Part shown: in pieces, positions 8,841-63,807 of the stretch
How the letters are laid out: the number at the start of each line of letters is the position of its first letter
How positions within the stretch are numbered: the first letter of the stretch is position 1
DNA from: a phage
Assembly (NCBI GenBank): GCA_037574385.1
Contig: GCA_037574385.1_4529.1
Reading direction: 5' to 3' (one strand)
Length of the DNA: 64,000 nucleotides
Notes under the pieces: model-generated
Databases searched by the model: none
Seen by the model: only the letters and a program-made list of their open reading frames with translations
Told to the model about the DNA's origin: nothing
Translations under genes and position numbers: made by a program

Positions 8841-8876
8841 GAGAGCATTATACTCTGCTCTCAAGAGTTTGTACAA
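8841..8876 (-). promoter_or_regulatory. early promoter with -10 inside a hairpin loop (copy 1 of a 36-nt repeat)
   Basis: Minus strand TGTACAAACTCTTGAGAGCAGAGTATAATGCTCTC: -35-like, 17-nt spacer, TATAAT; GAGAGCA/TGCTCTC stem flanks the -10. Near-identical copy at 53237-53272. Confidence 0.5.
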
Positions 8877-18275: not shown

Positions 18276-18800
18276 TCATTTTAGCAAAATAAAATCAACT
18301 TGTTCTGCCAATGAACGTCTGAACATTAATTGACAACTTCCGAGGATGAAATCAGGTGCTTCATAGACCGCGATGTAGTATCCTTTAGCTTTCAAGAGTT
18401 CAACATCTACCTGGTCATCAAACCATGCATAAACCGCGTCAACACTTTCAAATCCAAAATAGAACCCTTGAGCCCAATCTTCACTCAATTCAAATGTGTG
18501 CTCAATTCTATAGTATCTTAAGATATTTTGTTCAAGGAGTTTATCTTCATTTACTGTAGGACGATTAGGGACATTATAGTTGTCGCCGTGATGGTAGAAA
18601 TTACCTGAGAGTATTCCATGTTTATCAAGGAACTCCCATGTTTCTTCAGAGTTGTCGGTGCCCGACCAACCGTAAGGTGAGCGAGGTTCTTTATTCCAAG
18701 AGGTTTCCCAAATTCTGACGGCTTTACCGTCTTCGATGGCAATTCCTGGTAATGATTCACGTTGAGTACAAAAACTACGTTCTACGCGGTAAACTAACAT
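18276..18800 (-). CDS. hypothetical early protein (174 aa)
   Basis: ORF preceded by RBS-sequestering hairpin/promoter element. Confidence 0.55.
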   Translation of the reverse strand: MLVYRVERSFCTQRESLPGIAIEDGKAVRIWETSWNKEPRSPYGWSGTDNSEETWEFLDKHGILSGNFYHHGDNYNVPNRPTVNEDKLLEQNILRYYRIEHTFELSEDWAQGFYFGFESVDAVYAWFDDQVDVELLKAKGYYIAVYEAPDFILGSCQLMFRRSLAEQVDFILLK

Positions 18801-18806
18801 ATTATT

Positions 18807-18847
18807 CTCCTCTGGTTGATACGGTTATAATATCAAAACCAGAGGAG
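18807..18847 (-). promoter_or_regulatory. 11-bp stem-loop with -10-like element in loop and Shine-Dalgarno in 3' arm
   Basis: CTCCTCTGGTT ... AACCAGAGGAG perfect inverted repeat; minus-strand 3' arm CAACCAGAGGAG is followed by AATAATATG. Confidence 0.5.
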
Positions 18848-18859
18848 AAGTAAACAACT

Positions 18860-19288: not shown

Positions 19289-19774
19289 TTAAGCTTTACG
19301 AGGAGACACATAACGAGTGATTTCGGATTCTTTAACAACTCTGAAGTCACCTAAGAATACGATATTGTATAACTTTTCACCATCTTCAACCCATTGGTCA
19401 CTAATGAAGCCACACATAGTATCAGTTTTGCTTGGATAACCGTATTCATCGATGAAGTCAAATTCTTTATCAGTCTGGAATTCAACGCCTTTGCAAAGGG
19501 CCCATTTGAACTGTACATTATGCTCTGTGGATTCAACTTTTTCTCTTGAAGCAAAAGCACTACTCACAGGCGTTTCCAAGAACTTTGCACGAACATAAGC
19601 AAATTTGGTTTCCTGTGTCCCAAAACTAGGAATAATACGAACCTTTACCTCAGAATCTTCATCTTTAACGCCTTCTTTAAGTTGAATACTTACAACTTCG
19701 ACCAATTTTCCTGCGGCTTTAGAACGAGATTTGTTAGATACGCGAACGATTTCACCAATAATACCAAGATTCAT
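19289..19774 (-). CDS. hypothetical protein, tandem paralog 2 (start moved to MNLGIIGEIV)
   Basis: Track N-terminus (MLYIQGWMEYNEF) is the translated promoter repeat; internal Met is the likely start. Shares the C-terminal motif. Confidence 0.6.
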   Translation of the reverse strand: MNLGIIGEIVRVSNKSRSKAAGKLVEVVSIQLKEGVKDEDSEVKVRIIPSFGTQETKFAYVRAKFLETPVSSAFASREKVESTEHNVQFKWALCKGVEFQTDKEFDFIDEYGYPSKTDTMCGFISDQWVEDGEKLYNIVFLGDFRVVKESEITRYVSPRKA

Positions 19775-19804
19775 AATTTCTCTCTCTTTGTTTAAATTGA
19801 ATTC

Positions 19805-19833
19805 ATTATACTCCATCCATCCTTGGATGTACA
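19805..19833 (-). promoter_or_regulatory. early promoter-hairpin repeat, copy with compensatory stem variant
   Basis: Minus strand TGTACA-[CATCC AAGGAT GGATG]-GAG-TATAAT; stem CATCC/GGATG where the other copies have CAACC/GGTTG. Confidence 0.55.
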
Positions 19834-19836
19834 ACA

Positions 19837-20331
19837 TTAATTAAGGATATTAACCACAGCACTACGTGGAACTACACTAAAATCACCTGCATGAACAACG
19901 TTCAGAAGTTCAACACCGTCTTCAATCCACTGGTCAGTTACCCATCCATTTACTGGACCTGCGAAAGGACGTCGAATTGAAACATATTTACACAGCAAAT
20001 CAGTAGGCTCAATAGGCTTAATCAGAGTACCGTACATACAAGCGATATCCATATCAATACAGATGTCTTTAACGGGTTCTACTTCTTCAATCAACAGTTC
20101 AAAGTCTGTGCTTGGAAGGGCGGTAGTGGAAATTGTACCATATGAATTTTTAATTTCTAAGAATAACCAAGGGCCTTCAGCTTGTTTGATGAAGTTAACA
20201 ATAGTGAAACTATTGCCTTGAGTGGCACCTAAAATTTCACAAAACTTTTCGTAAGCTCGCACTGAAGCACTGTACCAGTTGATTTGTTTTTCGTCTTTCA
20301 GGATGTAAGTAGCCGTAGTATTGATATTCAT
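19837..20331 (-). CDS. hypothetical protein, tandem paralog 3 (164 aa); positional candidate for MotB-like protein
   Basis: Shares C-terminal ...GWVTDQWIEDGVELLNVVHAGDFSVV... motif; T4 has motB in this neighbourhood; not verified. Confidence 0.55.
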   Translation of the reverse strand: MNINTTATYILKDEKQINWYSASVRAYEKFCEILGATQGNSFTIVNFIKQAEGPWLFLEIKNSYGTISTTALPSTDFELLIEEVEPVKDICIDMDIACMYGTLIKPIEPTDLLCKYVSIRRPFAGPVNGWVTDQWIEDGVELLNVVHAGDFSVVPRSAVVNILN

Positions 20332-20362
20332 AATGTTTTTCCTGTTTGGTTAAGATAGAAAG

Positions 20363-20392
20363 ATTATACTCCAACCATCCTTGGTTGTAAAC
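20363..20392 (-). promoter_or_regulatory. early promoter-hairpin repeat (TTATACTCCAACCATCCTTGGTTGTAAACTG)
   Basis: Minus strand has GTTTACA, ~17-18-nt spacer containing CAACC..GGTTG stem, TATAAT; ~30 nt upstream of the gene start. Confidence 0.55.
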
Positions 20393-30051: not shown

Positions 30052-30114
30052 TTTAACTCCTTAGTTGATTTGATAGGACTACTATACTATAGTCCATCTA
30101 TAATGTAAACAAGT

Positions 30115-31074: not shown

Positions 31075-31367
31075 TCAGCGTGATAAACTGTAGCACCTTT
31101 AGTATCGTTCATTTGAACTACGTCTACCGGAGAAATTACTCGATAGAGACGTGGTTCACCTCCATAAGAGCGTGCTGCTCGTCCTGCATAAATCTTTGCT
31201 AAACCGATATCTTCAGTAAAGAATACACGATTCAAGTTTTTCTTACGTCCAGTTTCAGACAGAACTCCTGTTTCTTCAGGAGGACAAAGCATGTTTTCGA
31301 TGTTAGCTGAACTACTTGAACCGTGATAAAAAATCTTAAATTCTGCTTTACAATCGATGGTTTTCAT
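31050..31367 (-). CDS. hypothetical protein (105 aa)
   Basis: ORF preceded by promoter-hairpin element. Confidence 0.5.
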   Translation of the reverse strand: MKTIDCKAEFKIFYHGSSSSANIENMLCPPEETGVLSETGRKKNLNRVFFTEDIGLAKIYAGRAARSYGGEPRLYRVISPVDVVQMNDTKGATVYHAEWAFCEEI

Positions 31368-31373
31368 TTTGTT

Positions 31374-31414
31374 CTCCAGTAGTTGATAGGTCTATAATAA
31401 CACAACTACTGGAG
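31374..31414 (-). promoter_or_regulatory. 12-bp stem-loop with -10-like element in loop and Shine-Dalgarno in 3' arm
   Basis: CTCCAGTAGTTG ... CAACTACTGGAG perfect inverted repeat; minus strand GTTTAC-17 nt-TATTAT; 3' arm ...CTGGAGAACAAAATG. Confidence 0.5.
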
Positions 31415-31422
31415 AAGTAAAC

Positions 31423-41493: not shown

Positions 41494-41533
41494 ATTTCTC
41501 TCATTTAATTAGTTTACCGTCCTTGGCATTATA

Positions 41534-44245
41534 TCAAAAATCGAACATATCGAACAGAGATGCTTTCTTCTCGTAATCGAGTTTCGCTGCTGATGTGAAT
41601 CCTTCAAGTGGTTTAATAAATGTCTTCTCAAGGAGAACCGTGTAGTCCATCCAATGAAGTACGTCGTCTTTAATTAAATCTGTGATTTCAGTACCAGAAG
41701 GCCATGCGATACATTTATCACCGAATGGGTTTCCTTCACGTAAAGGCAGAACATATACTTTTTCACCTTCTACAACTTGTGGTGCATCAATATTACCTTT
41801 GATAGCCCGGTTATACGTTAGAATTCCACGAATATGGAACGGGCATTTGGGACCCGGGAATCCACCTACATCATATTTAGCAATGTTATTCGCAGAAGAT
41901 ACCGACGCGATGCTAATATAATTCAATTGACGGAATTCTTTTTCAAACTCTTTAAAATACTCTTGTAATGATTCTTCACCTTCCTGAAGCATACGACGAA
42001 TACATTCCTTAAGAGCTTTCTGTACCGCTTTAGGAGTTGAAGATTTCTGTGTTTCGAGACCCATGATTTTGAGTTTAGGCTTAGCGTAACGAGTACCTTC
42101 CATATCCCACACGTTTAATGCATAACGTTTCTTACCAGTCCAAAATCCGCCAATACCTTTAGAACCGAGCGGAGGACCAGCGATAGCTTCTCGGTCCATG
42201 AACATCAAATGTTGCTTATTATTCATGTATTCGCACATTTCACGGAAACCTCTATCAATAGCAGGTTCCATACGTTCACGAGCGAACTTATCTAAGAAGT
42301 CTACCCAATGGTTGGTATCACGGAATTTAGATTCACCAACCTTATCAATAATTTTATCTGCAGATACATAAATGGAGTCTGTATCACCGTATAGAACGAA
42401 AGCTTCACCTTCTGTACCACAAACTTCGTTCAGATATTCATTAACTTTACGTTCAATCCACTGTAAAGCCATTTGCCCGAATGTTGTGATTGCAGTAGCA
42501 TTACGCAAATCATAATAACGGAACCAAACGTTGCCAAGTGCACCATAAAGTGAGTTGATAAGCAATTTACGGTTAATCTGTGCAGTCATACCTGCAACTT
42601 CAGTACGTTGAGCTCTAAACAACATTTCATTAAGAGATTTAGCAGACAACTTTTTAATCTTTTCTTTAATCTCGTCAGTGAAGTCGAAACGATAATCAAC
42701 ATCTAATGGTTCGTCAACAGAAAGATTAGGATTATGCAATGCCTCTTTAATTATTTCACCATTACGTTGAGCTGCAAGCATGTAACCTTTATGTTCTTTA
42801 CGCTGATTAAAGACCTTAGTGATTTCAGTTGGAACTACACCATCACGGTCTTTATAATACATCATGCCATTAGGAGAGCAACTGTACACATCTGAAGGAC
42901 GTTCAGCAACAGCGTTAATATAATCATGTAATGGAGCTACTTTAAACGTTCCTGCTATTGTTTCTGGGCTAATATTCACTTGGCGAATAATACTTGGATA
43001 CAGAGATGTAAGGTCGAAACTCATTACATATTTGTATCGATTTGGAATAGGTTCCTTAACAAAAGCGCCTGGGTAAGGTTGAACCGGGTGAGAACGACCT
43101 TGTGGAATCACCTTGTTCTGCTCTTTAAGGCTATTAAAAATAATAGCATCCCATGTTTTAATTGGGCTAAACACAGATTGAATCTGTATCTTAGCATAAT
43201 AACCCATGTCCAAACTCAAGTTGATGAACTGACGCTTAGCATCAATTTGCAATACACGATACACGTCGATAATGTTATAAGAAATATATCGTTGGTGATT
43301 GCTTTCACGAAGCTTAGAAATAGGGCCGTCATATTTCAGTTTACCAACGTTCAATTCAAATTCTGAAATGTAATCCAGAGAATACGACGGTTGATTGGTA
43401 AAAGAGAATTTTTTGTAAAGGTCAATGTAATCAAGAACAGAGATACCGAACAATGTAATGATTTCACGAGAACCATACATGTTTTCGATAACTTTAACAT
43501 GAGTTTTACGATGTGGTGATAAACGTTTCGCAGTAGATTCGCCAAAAATATTCTTGATTCGGTTATACACATATGGAATATCAAATGACTCAACGTTCCA
43601 TCCGGTTAAAATGACAGGAGTTTTCTGTTGCCAGAAGTTGAGATATTCCATCAACAATTCTTTTTCGTTATCGAACGGCATATAAATGATTTTATCAATA
43701 ATTTCGGATGGAACTTCATCACCACCTTGTTCTTGAAGCTTAGCAGCGATTTCAATAGACCATTCTTCTACATTACCATATGGAGAATTCAATAGATCAA
43801 ATACGTAAAACCTGTCGTCAATTGAGTCATAATGAGTGATAGCATCAATCGGATGTTTTGCTTGTGACGGCTCAGGGAACCCATCCGGAGATGTTACTTC
43901 GATGTCGAAGTTAGCCACACGAATTTTTGTATGGTCGTATTTGATTTCATAGTTATAAGTGTCAGACAAATACGCCAATTTGAAATCGTCCATGCCAAGT
44001 GCTTCAAGTCCGATATCTTCCATGCGTTTAATCCATTGGGAGGCATCACGCATATTAGCGAACAACTTACGAGTACACGACTTACCGTAGATATCGAAAT
44101 ATTTCGTAGCCTGACTTTCTGGACAATGAGCAAACAGTGATGGTTTATATTCTACTTCACGAGTACGTTCACGGCCATTAGAATCGATGTAACGTTCAAA
44201 AATTGAATCACCGATCTGTTCAACCGTTAAGTAAAATTCTTTCAT
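41534..44245 (-). CDS. 43: DNA polymerase gp43 (family B)
   Basis: 903 aa; exonuclease motifs, YGDTDS polymerase motif; N-terminus MKEFYLTVEQIGDSIFERYIDSNGRERTREVEYKPSLFAH... matches my memory of RB69 gp43. Confidence 0.97.
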   Translation of the reverse strand: MKEFYLTVEQIGDSIFERYIDSNGRERTREVEYKPSLFAHCPESQATKYFDIYGKSCTRKLFANMRDASQWIKRMEDIGLEALGMDDFKLAYLSDTYNYEIKYDHTKIRVANFDIEVTSPDGFPEPSQAKHPIDAITHYDSIDDRFYVFDLLNSPYGNVEEWSIEIAAKLQEQGGDEVPSEIIDKIIYMPFDNEKELLMEYLNFWQQKTPVILTGWNVESFDIPYVYNRIKNIFGESTAKRLSPHRKTHVKVIENMYGSREIITLFGISVLDYIDLYKKFSFTNQPSYSLDYISEFELNVGKLKYDGPISKLRESNHQRYISYNIIDVYRVLQIDAKRQFINLSLDMGYYAKIQIQSVFSPIKTWDAIIFNSLKEQNKVIPQGRSHPVQPYPGAFVKEPIPNRYKYVMSFDLTSLYPSIIRQVNISPETIAGTFKVAPLHDYINAVAERPSDVYSCSPNGMMYYKDRDGVVPTEITKVFNQRKEHKGYMLAAQRNGEIIKEALHNPNLSVDEPLDVDYRFDFTDEIKEKIKKLSAKSLNEMLFRAQRTEVAGMTAQINRKLLINSLYGALGNVWFRYYDLRNATAITTFGQMALQWIERKVNEYLNEVCGTEGEAFVLYGDTDSIYVSADKIIDKVGESKFRDTNHWVDFLDKFARERMEPAIDRGFREMCEYMNNKQHLMFMDREAIAGPPLGSKGIGGFWTGKKRYALNVWDMEGTRYAKPKLKIMGLETQKSSTPKAVQKALKECIRRMLQEGEESLQEYFKEFEKEFRQLNYISIASVSSANNIAKYDVGGFPGPKCPFHIRGILTYNRAIKGNIDAPQVVEGEKVYVLPLREGNPFGDKCIAWPSGTEITDLIKDDVLHWMDYTVLLEKTFIKPLEGFTSAAKLDYEKKASLFDMFDF

Positions 44246-52875: not shown

Positions 52876-53243
52876 TTTGCCGCCTTAACAATTTTCAGGT
52901 CAATGAATTTTTTCTTACGTTGATTTTTCATACGACGGATAGTCTTTTCAGAGATTTCATGTTTCTGATAAGCTTTAGATTCAACACCAAATGCAGCAAC
53001 GTCAAATTCAGAAAGAATATATTGTACTAGAATTTCACGAATAGAATTACGTCCAATTTTCTGGTCGTGTTTTTGCATGATTTCATAAAGACGGAATTCC
53101 CACGCGTCAAGAACTTGAGGAGTAACAATATTGCCGGATTCCAGAAGAGCAACAACTTTATCGAAAGCGAAAGAATTAACTACGTTTTTGATTTTAGTAG
53201 ACATATTATTTTCCTCGGTTATTTTATTATCCAACGAGAGCAT
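52872..53243 (-). CDS. hypothetical protein (123 aa)
   Basis: ORF immediately downstream of the promoter-hairpin repeat. Confidence 0.55.
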   Translation of the reverse strand: MLSLDNKITEENNMSTKIKNVVNSFAFDKVVALLESGNIVTPQVLDAWEFRLYEIMQKHDQKIGRNSIREILVQYILSEFDVAAFGVESKAYQKHEISEKTIRRMKNQRKKKFIDLKIVKAAK

Positions 53244-53272
53244 TATACTCTGCTCTCAAGAGTCTGTACACT
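53237..53272 (-). promoter_or_regulatory. early promoter with -10 inside a hairpin loop (copy 2 of the 36-nt repeat)
   Basis: GAGAGCATTATACTCTGCTCTCAAGAGTCTGTACA, one mismatch to copy at 8841-8876. Confidence 0.5.
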
Positions 53273-53510
53273 ATTTTTTAAGCATGAAAAGCAAGTAATT
53301 TGTATCACGTGGAGTAATATCAACACCCATATCAAAGATGCCTTTATAGATTGGGTATTTGTTTTCGGTTGTATCGAAGCTGAAACTATTTCCATCACAT
53401 CTAACAGTAATGGCATCTGTTAAAATGTCATACTCAATCCTAACAATTGAATCCCCAATTTTAACGTCGAGGTGTTTTTTGAATTTGATAAAATCTAATT
53501 CTTCGGCCAT
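53271..53510 (-). CDS. hypothetical protein (79 aa)
   Basis: ORF in operon orientation. Confidence 0.45.
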   Translation of the reverse strand: MAEELDFIKFKKHLDVKIGDSIVRIEYDILTDAITVRCDGNSFSFDTTENKYPIYKGIFDMGVDITPRDTNYLLFMLKK

Positions 53511-59891: not shown

Positions 59892-60196
59892 TATAATGTT
59901 CTCTCAAATTTGTGGAAGCATTTACGGCATTTCAATTTCAGGTTATCAGTGGTCCAGTTAACCAATTGAACCTGAATAGTTCCACATTCCGGACACGGAT
60001 GTTTTGCTGCCGATTTGGCAGCATTTTCACGTCGTTCAACCATTTTCATTATTTCGTTCCATGCCGGAGGAACGAACTCTTCTTTACCATGAATTTTATC
60101 TCGCTGAACAAATTCAATCTTTGAACTATCGTCAATAAACTTAACTAAGCTGTGATTAGTGTTCATATCAATATCCTCTAAAAGACGTAGTTTCAT
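59891..60196 (-). CDS. zinc-ribbon protein (101 aa)
   Basis: CPECG ... CRKC four-Cys pattern in C-terminal half. Confidence 0.5.
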   Translation of the reverse strand: MKLRLLEDIDMNTNHSLVKFIDDSSKIEFVQRDKIHGKEEFVPPAWNEIMKMVERRENAAKSAAKHPCPECGTIQVQLVNWTTDNLKLKCRKCFHKFERTL

Positions 60197-61146
60197 TATA
60201 ACACCTCAATGGCATTTCGTAAACCATCCGCTTTCGCATTCAGAGCTTTTAACGATTTAGTTTGTTCTTTAATCTGGGCTTCGACTTCTTTCAGACGAGA
60301 TTTGAGATATTCACGTTCTTCTCTTAAGTTATCAACTTTTTCTGCTTTAGGCTCTTTAATAGGCTTAGGCTTATACTCGTTAGGGTTCTTCAGTTTAATT
60401 TTAATTCGAGAACTGAATAACATTGAACCGTTATCTTCGGTTTCGTCGAACATTTCAACAACATCCATAGTCTGTAACATCATGCGAAGTTTATAAGACA
60501 GAGAACGAACGGTTTTATTGTGCTTCTTAATTTCTTCAGCTTTCATGGTACCGAGATTACGTGAGTAGTAATAAGGAACCTGGATATCAATTGATAACGA
60601 CGCGGTGCCATTACCAGTTGGTTTGAATACTGCAGTAACCCAATCTTTAACATGAACTTTATTTGTACGATCATCGCCGCCTGTGAATAATTTACATGAA
60701 TGTTTAAAAAGCATATTCACTTGGTTATTGAATTCACAAGCAAATTTATCAGCAAATTTAGTTTCAGGAATGGTAGATAACCAATCAGCCAAATGAGTCT
60801 TTTTAACATCATTAACAATAGTGAATTCAACCAAATCGGTTTTAGATGTCACAGATTTAATAAAGCTCGGCTTCATAAAGTTTTTAATGTTATCGCGAGC
60901 TACAGTAGAAGATAATAAACGAGAACGTTTGAACCATTGAAGCAGTGTCCCTAATGAATGAGAATACGCATTCTGAGTATCTTTACAGATATGATTTTCT
61001 TGGCCTGTGTATGTACCAAAATCGCGAAGAATACCACTTACTACATCTCGGTGTGGAACATCAAATCCTAGTGCACCAGTAGCGCGCTGAGCATGAACGT
61101 TAGCGATAAGACCGGCAAAGTATTCAATGTAATGTGAACGTGTCAT
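60196..61146 (-). CDS. hypothetical protein with C-terminal coiled coil (316 aa)
   Basis: Globular N-domain plus heptad-like C-terminus (LREEREYLKSRLKEVEAQIKEQTKSLKALNAKADGL); own promoter repeat upstream. Confidence 0.6.
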   Translation of the reverse strand: MTRSHYIEYFAGLIANVHAQRATGALGFDVPHRDVVSGILRDFGTYTGQENHICKDTQNAYSHSLGTLLQWFKRSRLLSSTVARDNIKNFMKPSFIKSVTSKTDLVEFTIVNDVKKTHLADWLSTIPETKFADKFACEFNNQVNMLFKHSCKLFTGGDDRTNKVHVKDWVTAVFKPTGNGTASLSIDIQVPYYYSRNLGTMKAEEIKKHNKTVRSLSYKLRMMLQTMDVVEMFDETEDNGSMLFSSRIKIKLKNPNEYKPKPIKEPKAEKVDNLREEREYLKSRLKEVEAQIKEQTKSLKALNAKADGLRNAIEVL

Positions 61147-61174: not shown

Positions 61175-61203
61175 ATTATACTCCAACCATCCTTGGTTGT
61201 AAA
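61175..61203 (-). promoter_or_regulatory. early promoter-hairpin repeat
   Basis: Identical to the 20363-20392 copy (ATTATACTCCAACCATCCTTGGTTGTAAA). Confidence 0.55.
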
Positions 61204-61208
61204 CTGAT

Positions 61209-62165
61209 TTATGATTTTAATGCATTCATTGCGTTAAAAAGTTTAGAGTACTGCAACTGGAGATTGGTCACCACCTGTTGAGCATCACGAAGCTTAGCTT
61301 GTGCCTTATCAAGTTCAACAGACAGTTGGTCTACAGTAGCCTTGATTTGATTGTAATGATAATCTTCAGCCGGAAGAAGGTCATTAGAAACATTTAGTTT
61401 TGCTGCCGACAGTTTGCACACATTTGGCAAACCTTTAAACATACCAGATTGTGCTGGAGAATATGCGCCTAGAACCTCTGCATTACCGACTGGTGTTGAT
61501 GTAATATTGCCTTCGAACGTTGCATTTTCCTTTTTAAGATTTTTATAATATTCAGAGTCTTTGTGCCACCATGGTGCAGGAACCTTTTTACCAATAGATA
61601 CACGAGCCTGGATAGCGATATGGCCCTTATTCTTGATAGGGTCGATAATATTAAGCTCACGAGAATAAATTGCTTTAATCTGGTGGATATTATCACCTAA
61701 AACTTCCAACGCTTGGTGGAATACACGAGCAACGTTATCATTCTTAGGTTTATACGTAAGAGTGAACTCGTTCTCACTGATAACCATGGTTTCTAACTTA
61801 TCGTAAGTATATTTCAAATGCTTCATGTTAATTGCTTGAGGACGAATACGAGAAGCAATGGCCATCAGATTGTTAAGGTTATTTCTGAACTGTTTAGCAA
61901 AATATTGTCCATAACCGCCAATACAAAAATTACGAAGTTTCTGTTTGGCCAGTAAACGACTGAACTCACCGTTTTTAATGAACTCTTTAACGGGTGTGTT
62001 AGTAACACATTCAAATTGAGTAAACTTACGAGAAGTAATCCCATAATATGAACAGATTTCCTCAATCTCTTCAGGAGTCTTTACAGGCATACGGATAGGA
62101 TTAGGTCCTGGAGTATATGCGTTCGAGGTAAATTCTTTGATAAGTTCTCTACGTGTAATAGCCAT
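61209..62165 (-). CDS. hypothetical protein with C-terminal coiled coil (start moved to MAITRREL)
   Basis: Track N-terminus (MMYNQGWLEYNNF) is translated promoter repeat; C-terminal LSVELDKAQAKLRDAQQVVTNLQLQYSKL coiled coil. Confidence 0.6.
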   Translation of the reverse strand: MAITRRELIKEFTSNAYTPGPNPIRMPVKTPEEIEEICSYYGITSRKFTQFECVTNTPVKEFIKNGEFSRLLAKQKLRNFCIGGYGQYFAKQFRNNLNNLMAIASRIRPQAINMKHLKYTYDKLETMVISENEFTLTYKPKNDNVARVFHQALEVLGDNIHQIKAIYSRELNIIDPIKNKGHIAIQARVSIGKKVPAPWWHKDSEYYKNLKKENATFEGNITSTPVGNAEVLGAYSPAQSGMFKGLPNVCKLSAAKLNVSNDLLPAEDYHYNQIKATVDQLSVELDKAQAKLRDAQQVVTNLQLQYSKLFNAMNALKS

Positions 62166-62192
62166 TTTATATTCCTCATGTTGAAAAAAATT

Positions 62193-62222
62193 ATTATACT
62201 CCAACCATCCTTGGTTGTACAT
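62193..62222 (-). promoter_or_regulatory. early promoter-hairpin repeat
   Basis: ATTATACTCCAACCATCCTTGGTTGTACA; same element with -35 variant. Confidence 0.55.
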
Positions 62223-63217
62223 CATTCCTTAAGAAGTTTTACTACCTGAATAAGATTAGCTCGTTCTGTTTTATTTTTACCGTTCAGTCCGGCCAATCGC
62301 GAGATTTCATCGTCAGTTTGTTGAATAGTTACATTAAGTTCATTAATCAAAGCTTCAAAGTATTTGATTTGCTCAGCATGTTTTGATTCAAATTTCTGAA
62401 CCGGAATAACGTCTTGGTTCAGTTCATCAATAAGGTCTTTAAGAGCATCTTCTTGGTTGATATCATATTCAACTTCTTTTATTTCTTCAACGAGCTCGTC
62501 TTTATATCTAACGTCTTTTAGTCCTGGTGCTGGTCCTGAAATCTCTTCTTTAAGAGTACAAACATATCCAATACGGTATCCAGTTCCGTCTCGCTTGATA
62601 TCAACTTCGTCGATAAATCCACAATGTTTAAGTCCAGAGCCGATTATGTCAAAATATCCTTGACGTCGTCCTTCAAACGTTACACGAACTACTAAGACAG
62701 TTTTGCCACCAACCTTTTGAAGCTCACATTTATAAAAGTCTGTTGAACCTGAATAACGTGGATGAGTTTTAAAGTTCATCTGACGATCTAAGCCCATTTG
62801 TAAACGTGCTGTTACGGCCATAAAACGTGTTTGGTTCTCGTTAAGATGAGCAACGATCCATTTCAAAGGCATTTTACACTGTTCACGTCCGAACAAATCA
62901 GTACGTCCTAGATTACGCAGGATGTTGTTAGAGTTAATCATCGACAGAACGTTAAGTTTATTCAGCGCGCTGAAGATTCCATCAGCCATTGATTTTCCAT
63001 AACCTTTACACGCTTTAATAAGTGCTCGCGGCAGATTAGCATAGATTTCGGACGGCATATGAAAATCAAATTTACTAGTCAGTAATTGATGAACTTGGAT
63101 AGCAATTTGCTCATAATTAAGTGCTCTGCGATCGTTATGGTCTTTAAACCACACTTTAATCTGTGAAGCACATAAACCGTTAATTTCATGTTTTACCGCA
63201 TCAGATGTAATGCTCAT
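62222..63217 (-). CDS. hypothetical protein with long C-terminal coiled coil (331 aa)
   Basis: C-terminal ~100 aa highly charged heptad-like; preceded by variant promoter-hairpin (ATTATAACCCGTCCTTGGGTAAA). Confidence 0.6.
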   Translation of the reverse strand: MSITSDAVKHEINGLCASQIKVWFKDHNDRRALNYEQIAIQVHQLLTSKFDFHMPSEIYANLPRALIKACKGYGKSMADGIFSALNKLNVLSMINSNNILRNLGRTDLFGREQCKMPLKWIVAHLNENQTRFMAVTARLQMGLDRQMNFKTHPRYSGSTDFYKCELQKVGGKTVLVVRVTFEGRRQGYFDIIGSGLKHCGFIDEVDIKRDGTGYRIGYVCTLKEEISGPAPGLKDVRYKDELVEEIKEVEYDINQEDALKDLIDELNQDVIPVQKFESKHAEQIKYFEALINELNVTIQQTDDEISRLAGLNGKNKTERANLIQVVKLLKE

Positions 63218-63279
63218 AACTATTTCCTCAGATTGAATTGGAACTCAAAACCATTATAACCCGTCCTTGGGTAAAGCGT

Positions 63280-63807
63280 TTATGCGTGAACCGTCTTTAA
63301 ACGTTCTTCAAATTTCCGAAGAGTACTAATACGTTCTGATTTCTGTTTTGTGTAGTTTGCAATACGTTCTGAAGTGAGAGCGTATCGTTCGTTTACTGTT
63401 TCTTTCATGAAGTCAGGGATTTCACGAGAAGCTTTAATTTCATCAAACTTATCGATTACTGCCTGGTCTTCAGCGATTAAATTTTCGTACATCTCGATAT
63501 CTTTCTTGATAAACTCGATATCTTCCTGGGTTACTTTGGATAAACGAGATGCTTTATCCTTTTTGTACTGCTCGTTAGTTTCACGAGACCAGAATAATGT
63601 ACGTTTTTTATTAGTGTTTTTGTAGACTTCCACAATTCCAACCGAATCGATGATAACAATCCAATTCCAGCGAGATTTGAAAATCTGACCTCCGTCCACG
63701 GTAATCTCGTTACCATAAGCAACGTCATTAAAGAACTTGCTTTGTGCTTCAGATTTAAATTTACCGTCGTTATAATTTACCAGGTTGAAAATATCTTTAG
63801 CGTTCAT
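63280..63807 (-). CDS. hypothetical coiled-coil protein (175 aa)
   Basis: Charged helical C-terminal half; preceded by promoter/hairpin region 63811-63850. Confidence 0.55.
   Translation of the reverse strand: MNAKDIFNLVNYNDGKFKSEAQSKFFNDVAYGNEITVDGGQIFKSRWNWIVIIDSVGIVEVYKNTNKKRTLFWSRETNEQYKKDKASRLSKVTQEDIEFIKKDIEMYENLIAEDQAVIDKFDEIKASREIPDFMKETVNERYALTSERIANYTKQKSERISTLRKFEERLKTVHA

Follow-up and report, generated by a model that had tools for sequence, protein, structure and literature searches.

Few bacterial promoters have been studied as thoroughly as the early and middle promoters of T4, yet what lies between their boxes is generally regarded as filler. Is it filler in every case? The question is raised by a 64,000-nucleotide (nt) stretch of phage DNA (contig GCA_037574385.1_4529.1 of GenBank assembly GCA_037574385.1; hereafter, the window), which is 96-98% identical to the RB69-like phages (genus Mosigvirus and close relatives). 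Upstream of its motB, motB.1, nrdC.3 and nrdC.5 genes lie four promoter-like repeats, each with a small hairpin encoded between the boxes. The reading favored here, to which we assign a probability of about 0.6, is that the repeats are promoter cassettes carrying a selected RNA hairpin that is present on read-through transcripts.

Repeated promoters of two classes

A preliminary description of the window reported near-identical repeats of about 30 nt. A pattern search of the window with the 29-mer taken from that description returns four matches, with no mismatch at 20363-20391 and 61175-61203, one at 62193-62221, and three at 19805-19833; none is expected by chance, and none was found in 100 dinucleotide-preserving shuffles. 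The -35/spacer/TATAAT layout proposed for the minus strand also holds. Read on the strand of the genes, the four copies have the form T(T/G)TACA-N17-TATAAT and are the best σ70-like sites of both regions, with scores of 11/12 and 10/12. Every gene of these regions (motB and nrdC) is on the minus strand, and comparison with the annotated RB69 genome identifies those downstream of the copies as motB, motB.1, nrdC.3, and nrdC.5. The -10 hexamers end 27-31 nt before the true ATGs (19774, 20331, 61146, and 62165), in agreement with the earlier estimate of about 30 nt, and the start codons are preceded by the Shine-Dalgarno sequences GAGG, AGGA or GAGA. The upstream gene's stop codon precedes the -35 element (or, in the middle-type member described below, the MotA box) by 0-6 nt, and the 25 nt upstream of the cassettes are 68-76% AT compared with 63% for the window, a modest enrichment. 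This anatomy suggests that the four early-type copies are active as promoters.

The promoter of motB.1 (20363..20391, minus strand; ATG 20331) consists of a -35 element, TTTACA, at 20386-20391, a -10 element, TATAAT, at 20363-20368, and a spacer hairpin, CAACC-AAGGAT-GGTTG, at 20372-20387. RNAfold draws this hairpin with 6 bp, an AGGA tetraloop, and an energy of -6.9 kcal/mol. The nrdC.3 promoter (61175..61203, minus; ATG 61146; hairpin 61184-61199) has an identical run of 36 nt in common with the motB.1 copy. In the nrdC.5 promoter (62193..62221, minus; ATG 62165; hairpin 62202-62217), the -35 element TGTACA overlaps the nrdC.6 stop codon. The motB promoter (19805..19833, minus; true ATG 19774) has TGTACA and TATAAT as its boxes and, as previously described, a different stem, CATCC-AAGGAT-GGATG (19814-19829).

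A fifth element, near 63253, had been grouped with the early promoters as a variant with a preserved ACCC...GGGT stem. The pairing is present (ACCC-AAGGAC-GGGT, 63259-63272), but only 11 nt separate TTTACC from TATAAT, a spacing that rules out a -35/-10 early promoter. Instead, the element (63253..63281, minus) has the anatomy of a MotA-box (middle-type) promoter of nrdC.6 (ATG 63217), with the box AAACGCTTTA at 63272-63281 and, after 13 nt, TATAAT at 63253-63258. MotA-dependent middle promoters carry the box (a/t)(a/t)(a/t)TGCTT(t/c)A 12 +/- 1 bp upstream of TAtaaT. Compared with this consensus, AAACGCTTTA has one mismatch, identical to that of the T4 middle promoter PnrdC.7, whose start has been mapped at 53325 (Hinton 2010, Table 1); the TATAAT that follows the PnrdC.7 hairpin ends exactly 7 nt before that position. 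The 63253 element lies directly after the nrdC.8 stop codon, the same place as T4 PnrdC.7, and elements of its type are conserved in T4-like, Dhakavirus, and Mosigvirus contigs. Both have the CGCTTTA box, an AAGGAY hairpin, and a box-to-TATAAT spacing of 12-13 bp, while the stem (ACCC/GGGT in the window versus TTATACC/GGTATAA in T4) and the downstream gene (nrdC.6 versus nrdC.7) differ. As judged by sequence and location, the 63253 element is the positional ortholog of PnrdC.7. The hairpin family thus includes a promoter whose start has been mapped by experiment, and its members fall into two promoter classes.

A constant loop on covarying stems

The claim that compensatory changes mark the hairpin as selected originally depended on one double change; it became strong once T4, Dhakavirus, and other relatives were included. 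By blastn, Mosigvirus genomes have 3-4 copies each and Dhakavirus genomes one each. In all of the Dhakavirus genomes examined, this copy is upstream of nrdC.4 and has the CATCC/GGATG stem, the same compensated allele as the window motB promoter, with T or C as the last loop base. The 29-mer has no blastn match in T4. Reading the T4 intergenic sequences reveals AGCC-AAGGAT-GGCT before nrdC.3, CCAC-AAGGAT-GTGG before nrdC.4, and TTATACC-AAGGAT-GGTATAA before nrdC.7; JS98 also contains the last of these stems. A further lineage (L063-L065) has CTTCC-AAGGAT-GGAGG, in which a U.G pair is possible on the sense strand only. All members have an AAGGA(U/C) loop and a stem of 4-7 bp, and the family is limited to the nrdC block plus, in Mosigvirus, the motB block. 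No Rfam family matches at its gathering threshold anywhere in the window.

The covariance analysis across related phages that had been proposed was carried out on 11 distinct sequences, with 500 shuffles and slid registers as controls. Pairing is kept in 90.9% of cells, and four of the five stem pairs have changed on both sides; at the third pair from the loop, A:U, U:A, G:C, and C:G are all seen. The covariation score is 0.687, compared with 0.148 for the shuffles (0/500 reach the observed value) and at most 0.18 for the slid registers, and RNAalifold independently predicts the same helix. Where AAGGAY precedes a -10-like hexamer, the stem has 4-7 bp at the sites within real promoters and 0-2 bp at all others; these stem-poor sites are mostly in coding sequence, with two in JS98 that are intergenic and on the opposite strand. 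Since such sites have at most 2 bp outside real promoter spacers, the pairing is not a product of ascertainment bias. In the window, stems accompany 5 of the 39 AAGGAY sites on the sense strand (0.2 expected) and 0 of the 26 on the antisense strand. The distance from the loop to the -10 element ranges from 2 to 9 nt across members, a variation that speaks against a fixed contact with RNA polymerase. Together, these comparisons indicate that the spacer hairpin is kept by selection.

Read-through RNA and its possible readers

What might such a hairpin do? According to the reading favored here, four σ70 early-type cassettes and one MotA-type middle cassette would each restart transcription before one accessory gene in the variable motB and nrdC regions of Mosigvirus. 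Within each cassette, the stretch from the upstream box to the -10 element would encode the 4-7 bp hairpin with its constant loop, and local transcripts, beginning about 7 nt downstream of the -10 element, would lack it. Because the promoters' own transcripts start downstream of the hairpin, the structure would exist only in RNA that has been read through from upstream promoters. Covarying stems beneath an unchanging loop point to a selected RNA element, one that is probably recognized by a protein. We infer that the hairpin acts at the level of RNA, where it would mark read-through as opposed to locally initiated transcripts and would affect translation, processing or stability around the downstream cistron. 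A spacer element retained in at least four lineages and in both promoter classes would then represent information readable only from RNA made elsewhere, and would offer a handle on how T4-type phages tell read-through transcripts from those started locally. T4 itself allows a direct test of the idea, because it has a mapped member (PnrdC.7) and can dispense with the nrdC region; the interest of the finding, a moderate one, rests on this testability and on the strong covariation.

Several observations weigh against this reading. The activity of the four early-type copies is predicted from their sequence. The hairpin is weak (-4.9 to -8.2 kcal/mol), and its 101-nt contexts fold with unremarkable z-scores, no better than shuffles; taken from a single sequence, a stem-loop of this size would carry little weight. 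The preference for the sense strand is based on two G.U pairs only, both at outer positions. Ongoing conversion between copies, which is part of the reading, is supported anecdotally. Two variants are uncompensated: CCC/GG in L021, which resembles an intermediate, and AGCC/AGCT in L062, a T4-like genome from IMG/VR, where the copy has a decayed -10 element. Finally, template-switch mutation can keep palindromes perfect without selection. The L062 variant is the promoter copy of nrdC.3, downstream of nrdC.4; it has lost both a stem pair (GGCT to AGCT) and the -10 sequence (TATAAA to TACAAA), and the hairpin and the promoter appear to be decaying together.

The best-surviving alternative, although an unlikely one, is that the hairpin is a site for CsrA. 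A CsrA dimer on the read-through hairpin would bridge to the GGA of the Shine-Dalgarno sequence and block translation, or abundant early RNAs would titrate CsrA; in either case, local transcripts would escape. The CsrA consensus obtained by SELEX (systematic ligand evolution by exponential enrichment), RUACARGGAUGU, lies mostly in six-nt loops with an invariant GGA on stems of no more than 4 bp, and RsmE-RNA structures contain an ANGGAN hexaloop (reviewed in PMC7652899). An AAGGAU loop closed by C-G fits both, and the T4 nrdC.4 copy, with its ACAAGGAUGU, agrees exactly with the consensus. The sole variable loop position (U/C) corresponds to an N of the RsmE hexaloop and to U in the E. coli CsrA consensus. 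In four of the five window elements, the Shine-Dalgarno GGA (the next one after the hairpin-adjoining GGAG, where that is present) is 35-39 nt from the loop GGA, within the bridging range of 10-63 nt, and CsrB has been reported to be stabilized during T4 infection (PMC9697503). Like the high-affinity CsrA/RsmA sites (the glgC leader hairpin, the CsrB repeats, and SELEX ligands), the window element would combine a short hairpin, a six-nt ARGGAU loop, and C-G closure, often with a second GGA in the Shine-Dalgarno sequence downstream. Unlike them, it is placed within a phage promoter spacer and would occur on read-through RNA only; it is a candidate by sequence, and the second site is missing in some members. 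Specifically, the leaders of window motB, T4 nrdC.3, and T4 nrdC.7 have no Shine-Dalgarno GGA. In addition, AAGGA is itself Shine-Dalgarno-like, so the match may be coincidence; a literature search found no paper tying CsrA to these promoters; and GGA-loop spacer hairpins are not general among T4 early promoters, occurring in just 2 of 19 within T4 6-56 kb (P 0.2). If the idea were true, a host global translational regulator would be used to silence or mark accessory genes on long transcripts, or would be soaked up by early RNAs.

RegB, acting with S1, offers a second comparison. Its consensus, GGAGAAUAAAA, has a GGAG in single-stranded form and, after it, 7 nt that are rich in A and free of C. 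In the four early-type copies, the hairpin is followed by GGAGUAUAAU(G/C/A), which has A at positions 6 and 8 but not at 11. This RegB-like GGAG-UAUAAU resembles the well-cut site of the T4 motB leader and is confined to the early-type copies, being absent from the middle-type members. The loop GGAU is an improbable cleavage site, because a published survey of T4 reported intergenic GGAU sites, other than those of 55.2 and motB.2, to be RegB-resistant (PMC1702504). The motB leaders of T4 (~1150-1185 of L006) and JS98 (~3640-3665 of L005) have 11-13 extra nt after the -10 element, including GGAGTATAAAA in T4 and GGATTATAAT in JS98. RegB is reported to cleave the T4 motB transcript efficiently at a GGAG (PMC1702504), and GGAGTATAAAA would be the site of this cut. 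It also resembles the GGAGTATAAT present in the Mosigvirus cassette, and may represent either a remnant or a duplicate of a -10 region.

Spread of the copies and related promoter stem-loops

Less probable than a CsrA site is the idea that duplication and gene conversion have simply spread a single strong promoter, that the repeats are its paralogous copies, and that their functionless palindrome is kept by descent or by quasi-palindrome (template-switch) correction. The weakness of the hairpin and the presence of only two stem alleles within Mosigvirus plus Dhakavirus would suit this idea. So would the relationships among the downstream genes, which make gene-plus-promoter duplication plausible: nrdC.3 is a distant paralog of nrdC.4 (identity of 27-32% across 85-156 amino acids, with similar N-termini, MTR..YI), and motB, a motB-like open reading frame (ORF), and motB.1 have a C-terminal domain in common. 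However, four of the five pairs have diverged with pairing kept around a constant, asymmetric loop, which a mutational mechanism fails to explain. Furthermore, the loss of pairing in L062 accompanies decay of the -10 element, and the hairpin has been retained while its place relative to the -10 element has shifted by up to 7 nt.

Some copies may nevertheless have arisen by gene-plus-promoter duplication, and in the read-through reading itself, the short conserved cassettes would act as homology patches, allowing promoters to be copied or converted between loci that lie far apart. The motB.1 and nrdC.3 copies lie 41 kb apart before genes for unrelated proteins and have 31-48 identical nt; the longest identical run, 48 nt, is in RB69, with 31-36 nt elsewhere. 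In the motB promoters of the window, RB69, T4, and JS98, the flanks and the -35 element align and the spacer alone differs, with Mosigvirus having the nrdC-type spacer. Such patterns fit short conversion patches between promoters. The evidence for concerted evolution of copies within genomes gives mixed signals and is a hint only. Gene content around the motB and nrdC blocks varies among T4, RB69, and JS98. The nrdC order is nrdC.5-nrdC.4-nrdC.3 in T4, nrdC.5-nrdC.3 in the window, and orf86-nrdC.4 in JS98, with nrdC.4 absent from the window and nrdC.3 absent from JS98. JS98 orf86 is a distant relative of T4 nrdC.5.

A function in duplex DNA, whether the element is the operator of a dimeric DNA-binding protein or a spacer that tunes the binding of RNA polymerase, is very improbable. 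In favor of such a function, a protein bound to the element would be within the promoter and would block RNA polymerase, and Hinton's review describes that T4 early promoters have further conserved regions (PMC2988021). However, variability in the arms and constancy in the asymmetric center form the inverse of a dimer-operator pattern, the spacing to the -10 element varies between 2 and 9 nt, the element occurs in two promoter classes, and G.U pairs become A.C mismatches on the other strand.

The preliminary description likened the repeats to the promoter-early-stem-loop (PeSL) cassettes of T4-type phages, a comparison that stands for the anatomy and fails for the terminator-type features of the stem-loop. 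PeSLs were defined in RB49 and phi1 as repeated intergenic cassettes comprising an AT-rich lead, a σ70 promoter, a stem-loop mostly between the -35 and -10 elements or over the -10, and a Shine-Dalgarno sequence with a start codon; the motifs are concentrated in hyperplastic regions (Arbiol et al. 2010, PMC2839356). As far as sequence can tell, all of these structural features recur in the window: repeated intergenic cassettes, an AT-rich lead, σ70-like boxes about 17 bp apart, a stem-loop in the spacer, and a Shine-Dalgarno sequence with a start codon. The cassettes also lie in hyperplastic regions beside genes that come and go, offer short homology for recombination, and have a middle-promoter version, as PeSLs do in the PmSL motifs described in the work on the PST/T4 and nt-1/KVP40 phages (Comeau et al. 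2014). The gene content that varies around them is the pattern predicted by PeSL-mediated shuffling. In contrast to the poly-G/poly-C stems of PeSLs, the window stem-loops are small, mixed in AU and GC, and without terminator features. Their AAGGAY loop is conserved on stems that covary across four lineages, whereas published PeSLs have no conserved loop. They also differ from the published T4/PST stem-loops, which lie upstream of the promoter with the pattern AGNA-loop-TCNT (Comeau et al. 2014), in being located in the spacer. The cassettes are thus a well-supported variant of the known T4-type promoter-plus-stem-loop cassettes. It is very improbable that their stem-loops work as terminators or attenuators insulating each gene from upstream transcription, as has been proposed for PeSLs: one RB49/phi1 stem-loop has been shown to terminate (PMC2839356) and the intergenic place just after the upstream stop (0-6 nt before the -35 or MotA box) is the PeSL arrangement, but the window hairpins have 4-7 bp and energies of -5 to -8 kcal/mol, their stems are not followed by a T/U run, a terminator scan called none of them, and a conserved loop sequence would be unexpected. 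The PeSL concept would be refined accordingly, in that not all of its stem-loops are terminators.

Other promoter hairpins were surveyed as well. A general occurrence of GGA-loop hairpins in T4-type early promoter spacers was rejected on the T4 count given above; the JS98 count is 4 of 22 (P 0.004), and that of the window is 5 of 29 and includes the four members of the four-copy family. When every kind of hairpin is counted, the spacers hold no more of them than shuffled spacers do. On the sense strand of T4 6-56 kb, there are four ANGGAN hexaloop hairpins with at least 4 pairs, and three of these are the nrdC.3-, nrdC.4-, and nrdC.7-type promoters of this family. GGA-loop spacer hairpins are also present in the JS98 imm and modA promoters. 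An unrelated early-type promoter of the window (30081-30109, minus) has a 7-bp spacer hairpin with an AUGGA loop (ATTATAG-ATGGA-CTATAGT) and is identical in RB69. The loop motif of the family recurs in another arrangement at ~41500-41540 (minus), where TGCC-AAGGAC-GGTA, with one G.T pair, comes right after GATATAAT and ~20 nt before the start of a small ORF. Beyond the T4-type phages, a pattern scan found an AAGGAT loop between -35 and -10 elements in uncultured phage contigs, including L098 (363 kb, IMG/VR) and L142 (102 kb), and also L072 and L144. Examples are TTGACA-g-TAGCCC-AAGGAT-GGGCTA-TAAT and TTGACA-a-ATCGCC-AAGGAT-GGCGAT-ATAAT, with 6-bp stems and perfect boxes; long stems are over-represented among the matches listed. 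Of L098 and L142, one has no match to known phages and the other has 2%-coverage matches only.

In T4 e, soc, 49, and I-TevI, the ribosome-binding site is held in a hairpin on read-through RNA and is free on transcripts from a promoter inside that hairpin. As in these genes, the window cassettes contain a promoter-embedded 5' element that would exist on read-through RNA only; unlike them, the hairpin of the four-copy family does not pair with the Shine-Dalgarno sequence. A general pairing of spacers with Shine-Dalgarno regions was rejected (own versus mismatched pairs, P 0.59); a few promoters do so, and strongly. In the minus-strand early-type promoters at 18800-18854 and 31367-31421, the spacers are perfect 12-13 nt complements of the Shine-Dalgarno region, with arms TCTCCTCTGGTT...AACCAGAGGAGA and TCTCCAGTAGTTG...CAACTACTGGAGA and minimum free energies of -24 and -21 kcal/mol (z -6.5 and -5.2), respectively. 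At these two promoters, the ribosome-binding site would be hidden in read-through RNA and free in RNA started locally. JS98 motB.2 has the same design with other arms. A further arrangement is seen in a second near-identical promoter pair (53242-53270 and 8847-8875, minus), TGTACA-(g/a)actcttgagagcagag-TATAAT-gctctc, in which the -10 element lies in the loop of a GAGAGC...GCTCTC hairpin. The motB promoters of T4 (~1187-1215 of L006) and JS98 (~3670-3698 of L005) also have the -10 element in a loop, between arms that differ and are still complementary (GGGACC...GGTCCC and AGAGCC...GGCTCT, respectively).

Finally, the cassettes have consequences for annotation: because of them, gene calls, as well as at least one public record, contain N-termini that are falsely extended. 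The coding sequences, all on the minus strand, are motB (19289..19774), motB.1 (19837..20331), nrdC.3 (60196..61146), nrdC.5 (61209..62165), and nrdC.6 (62222..63217). As noted previously, two mechanically called ORFs run on through promoters: that of motB continues to 19837 (19289..19837) and that of nrdC.5 to 62225 (61209..62225). The SA79RD record annotates its nrdC.3 copy as a promoter by similarity and leaves its nrdC.5 copy unannotated. In the public phiE142 RefSeq record (NC_055709, KNT13_gp032), the start of motB is placed at an ATG within GGATGGAG of the promoter spacer.

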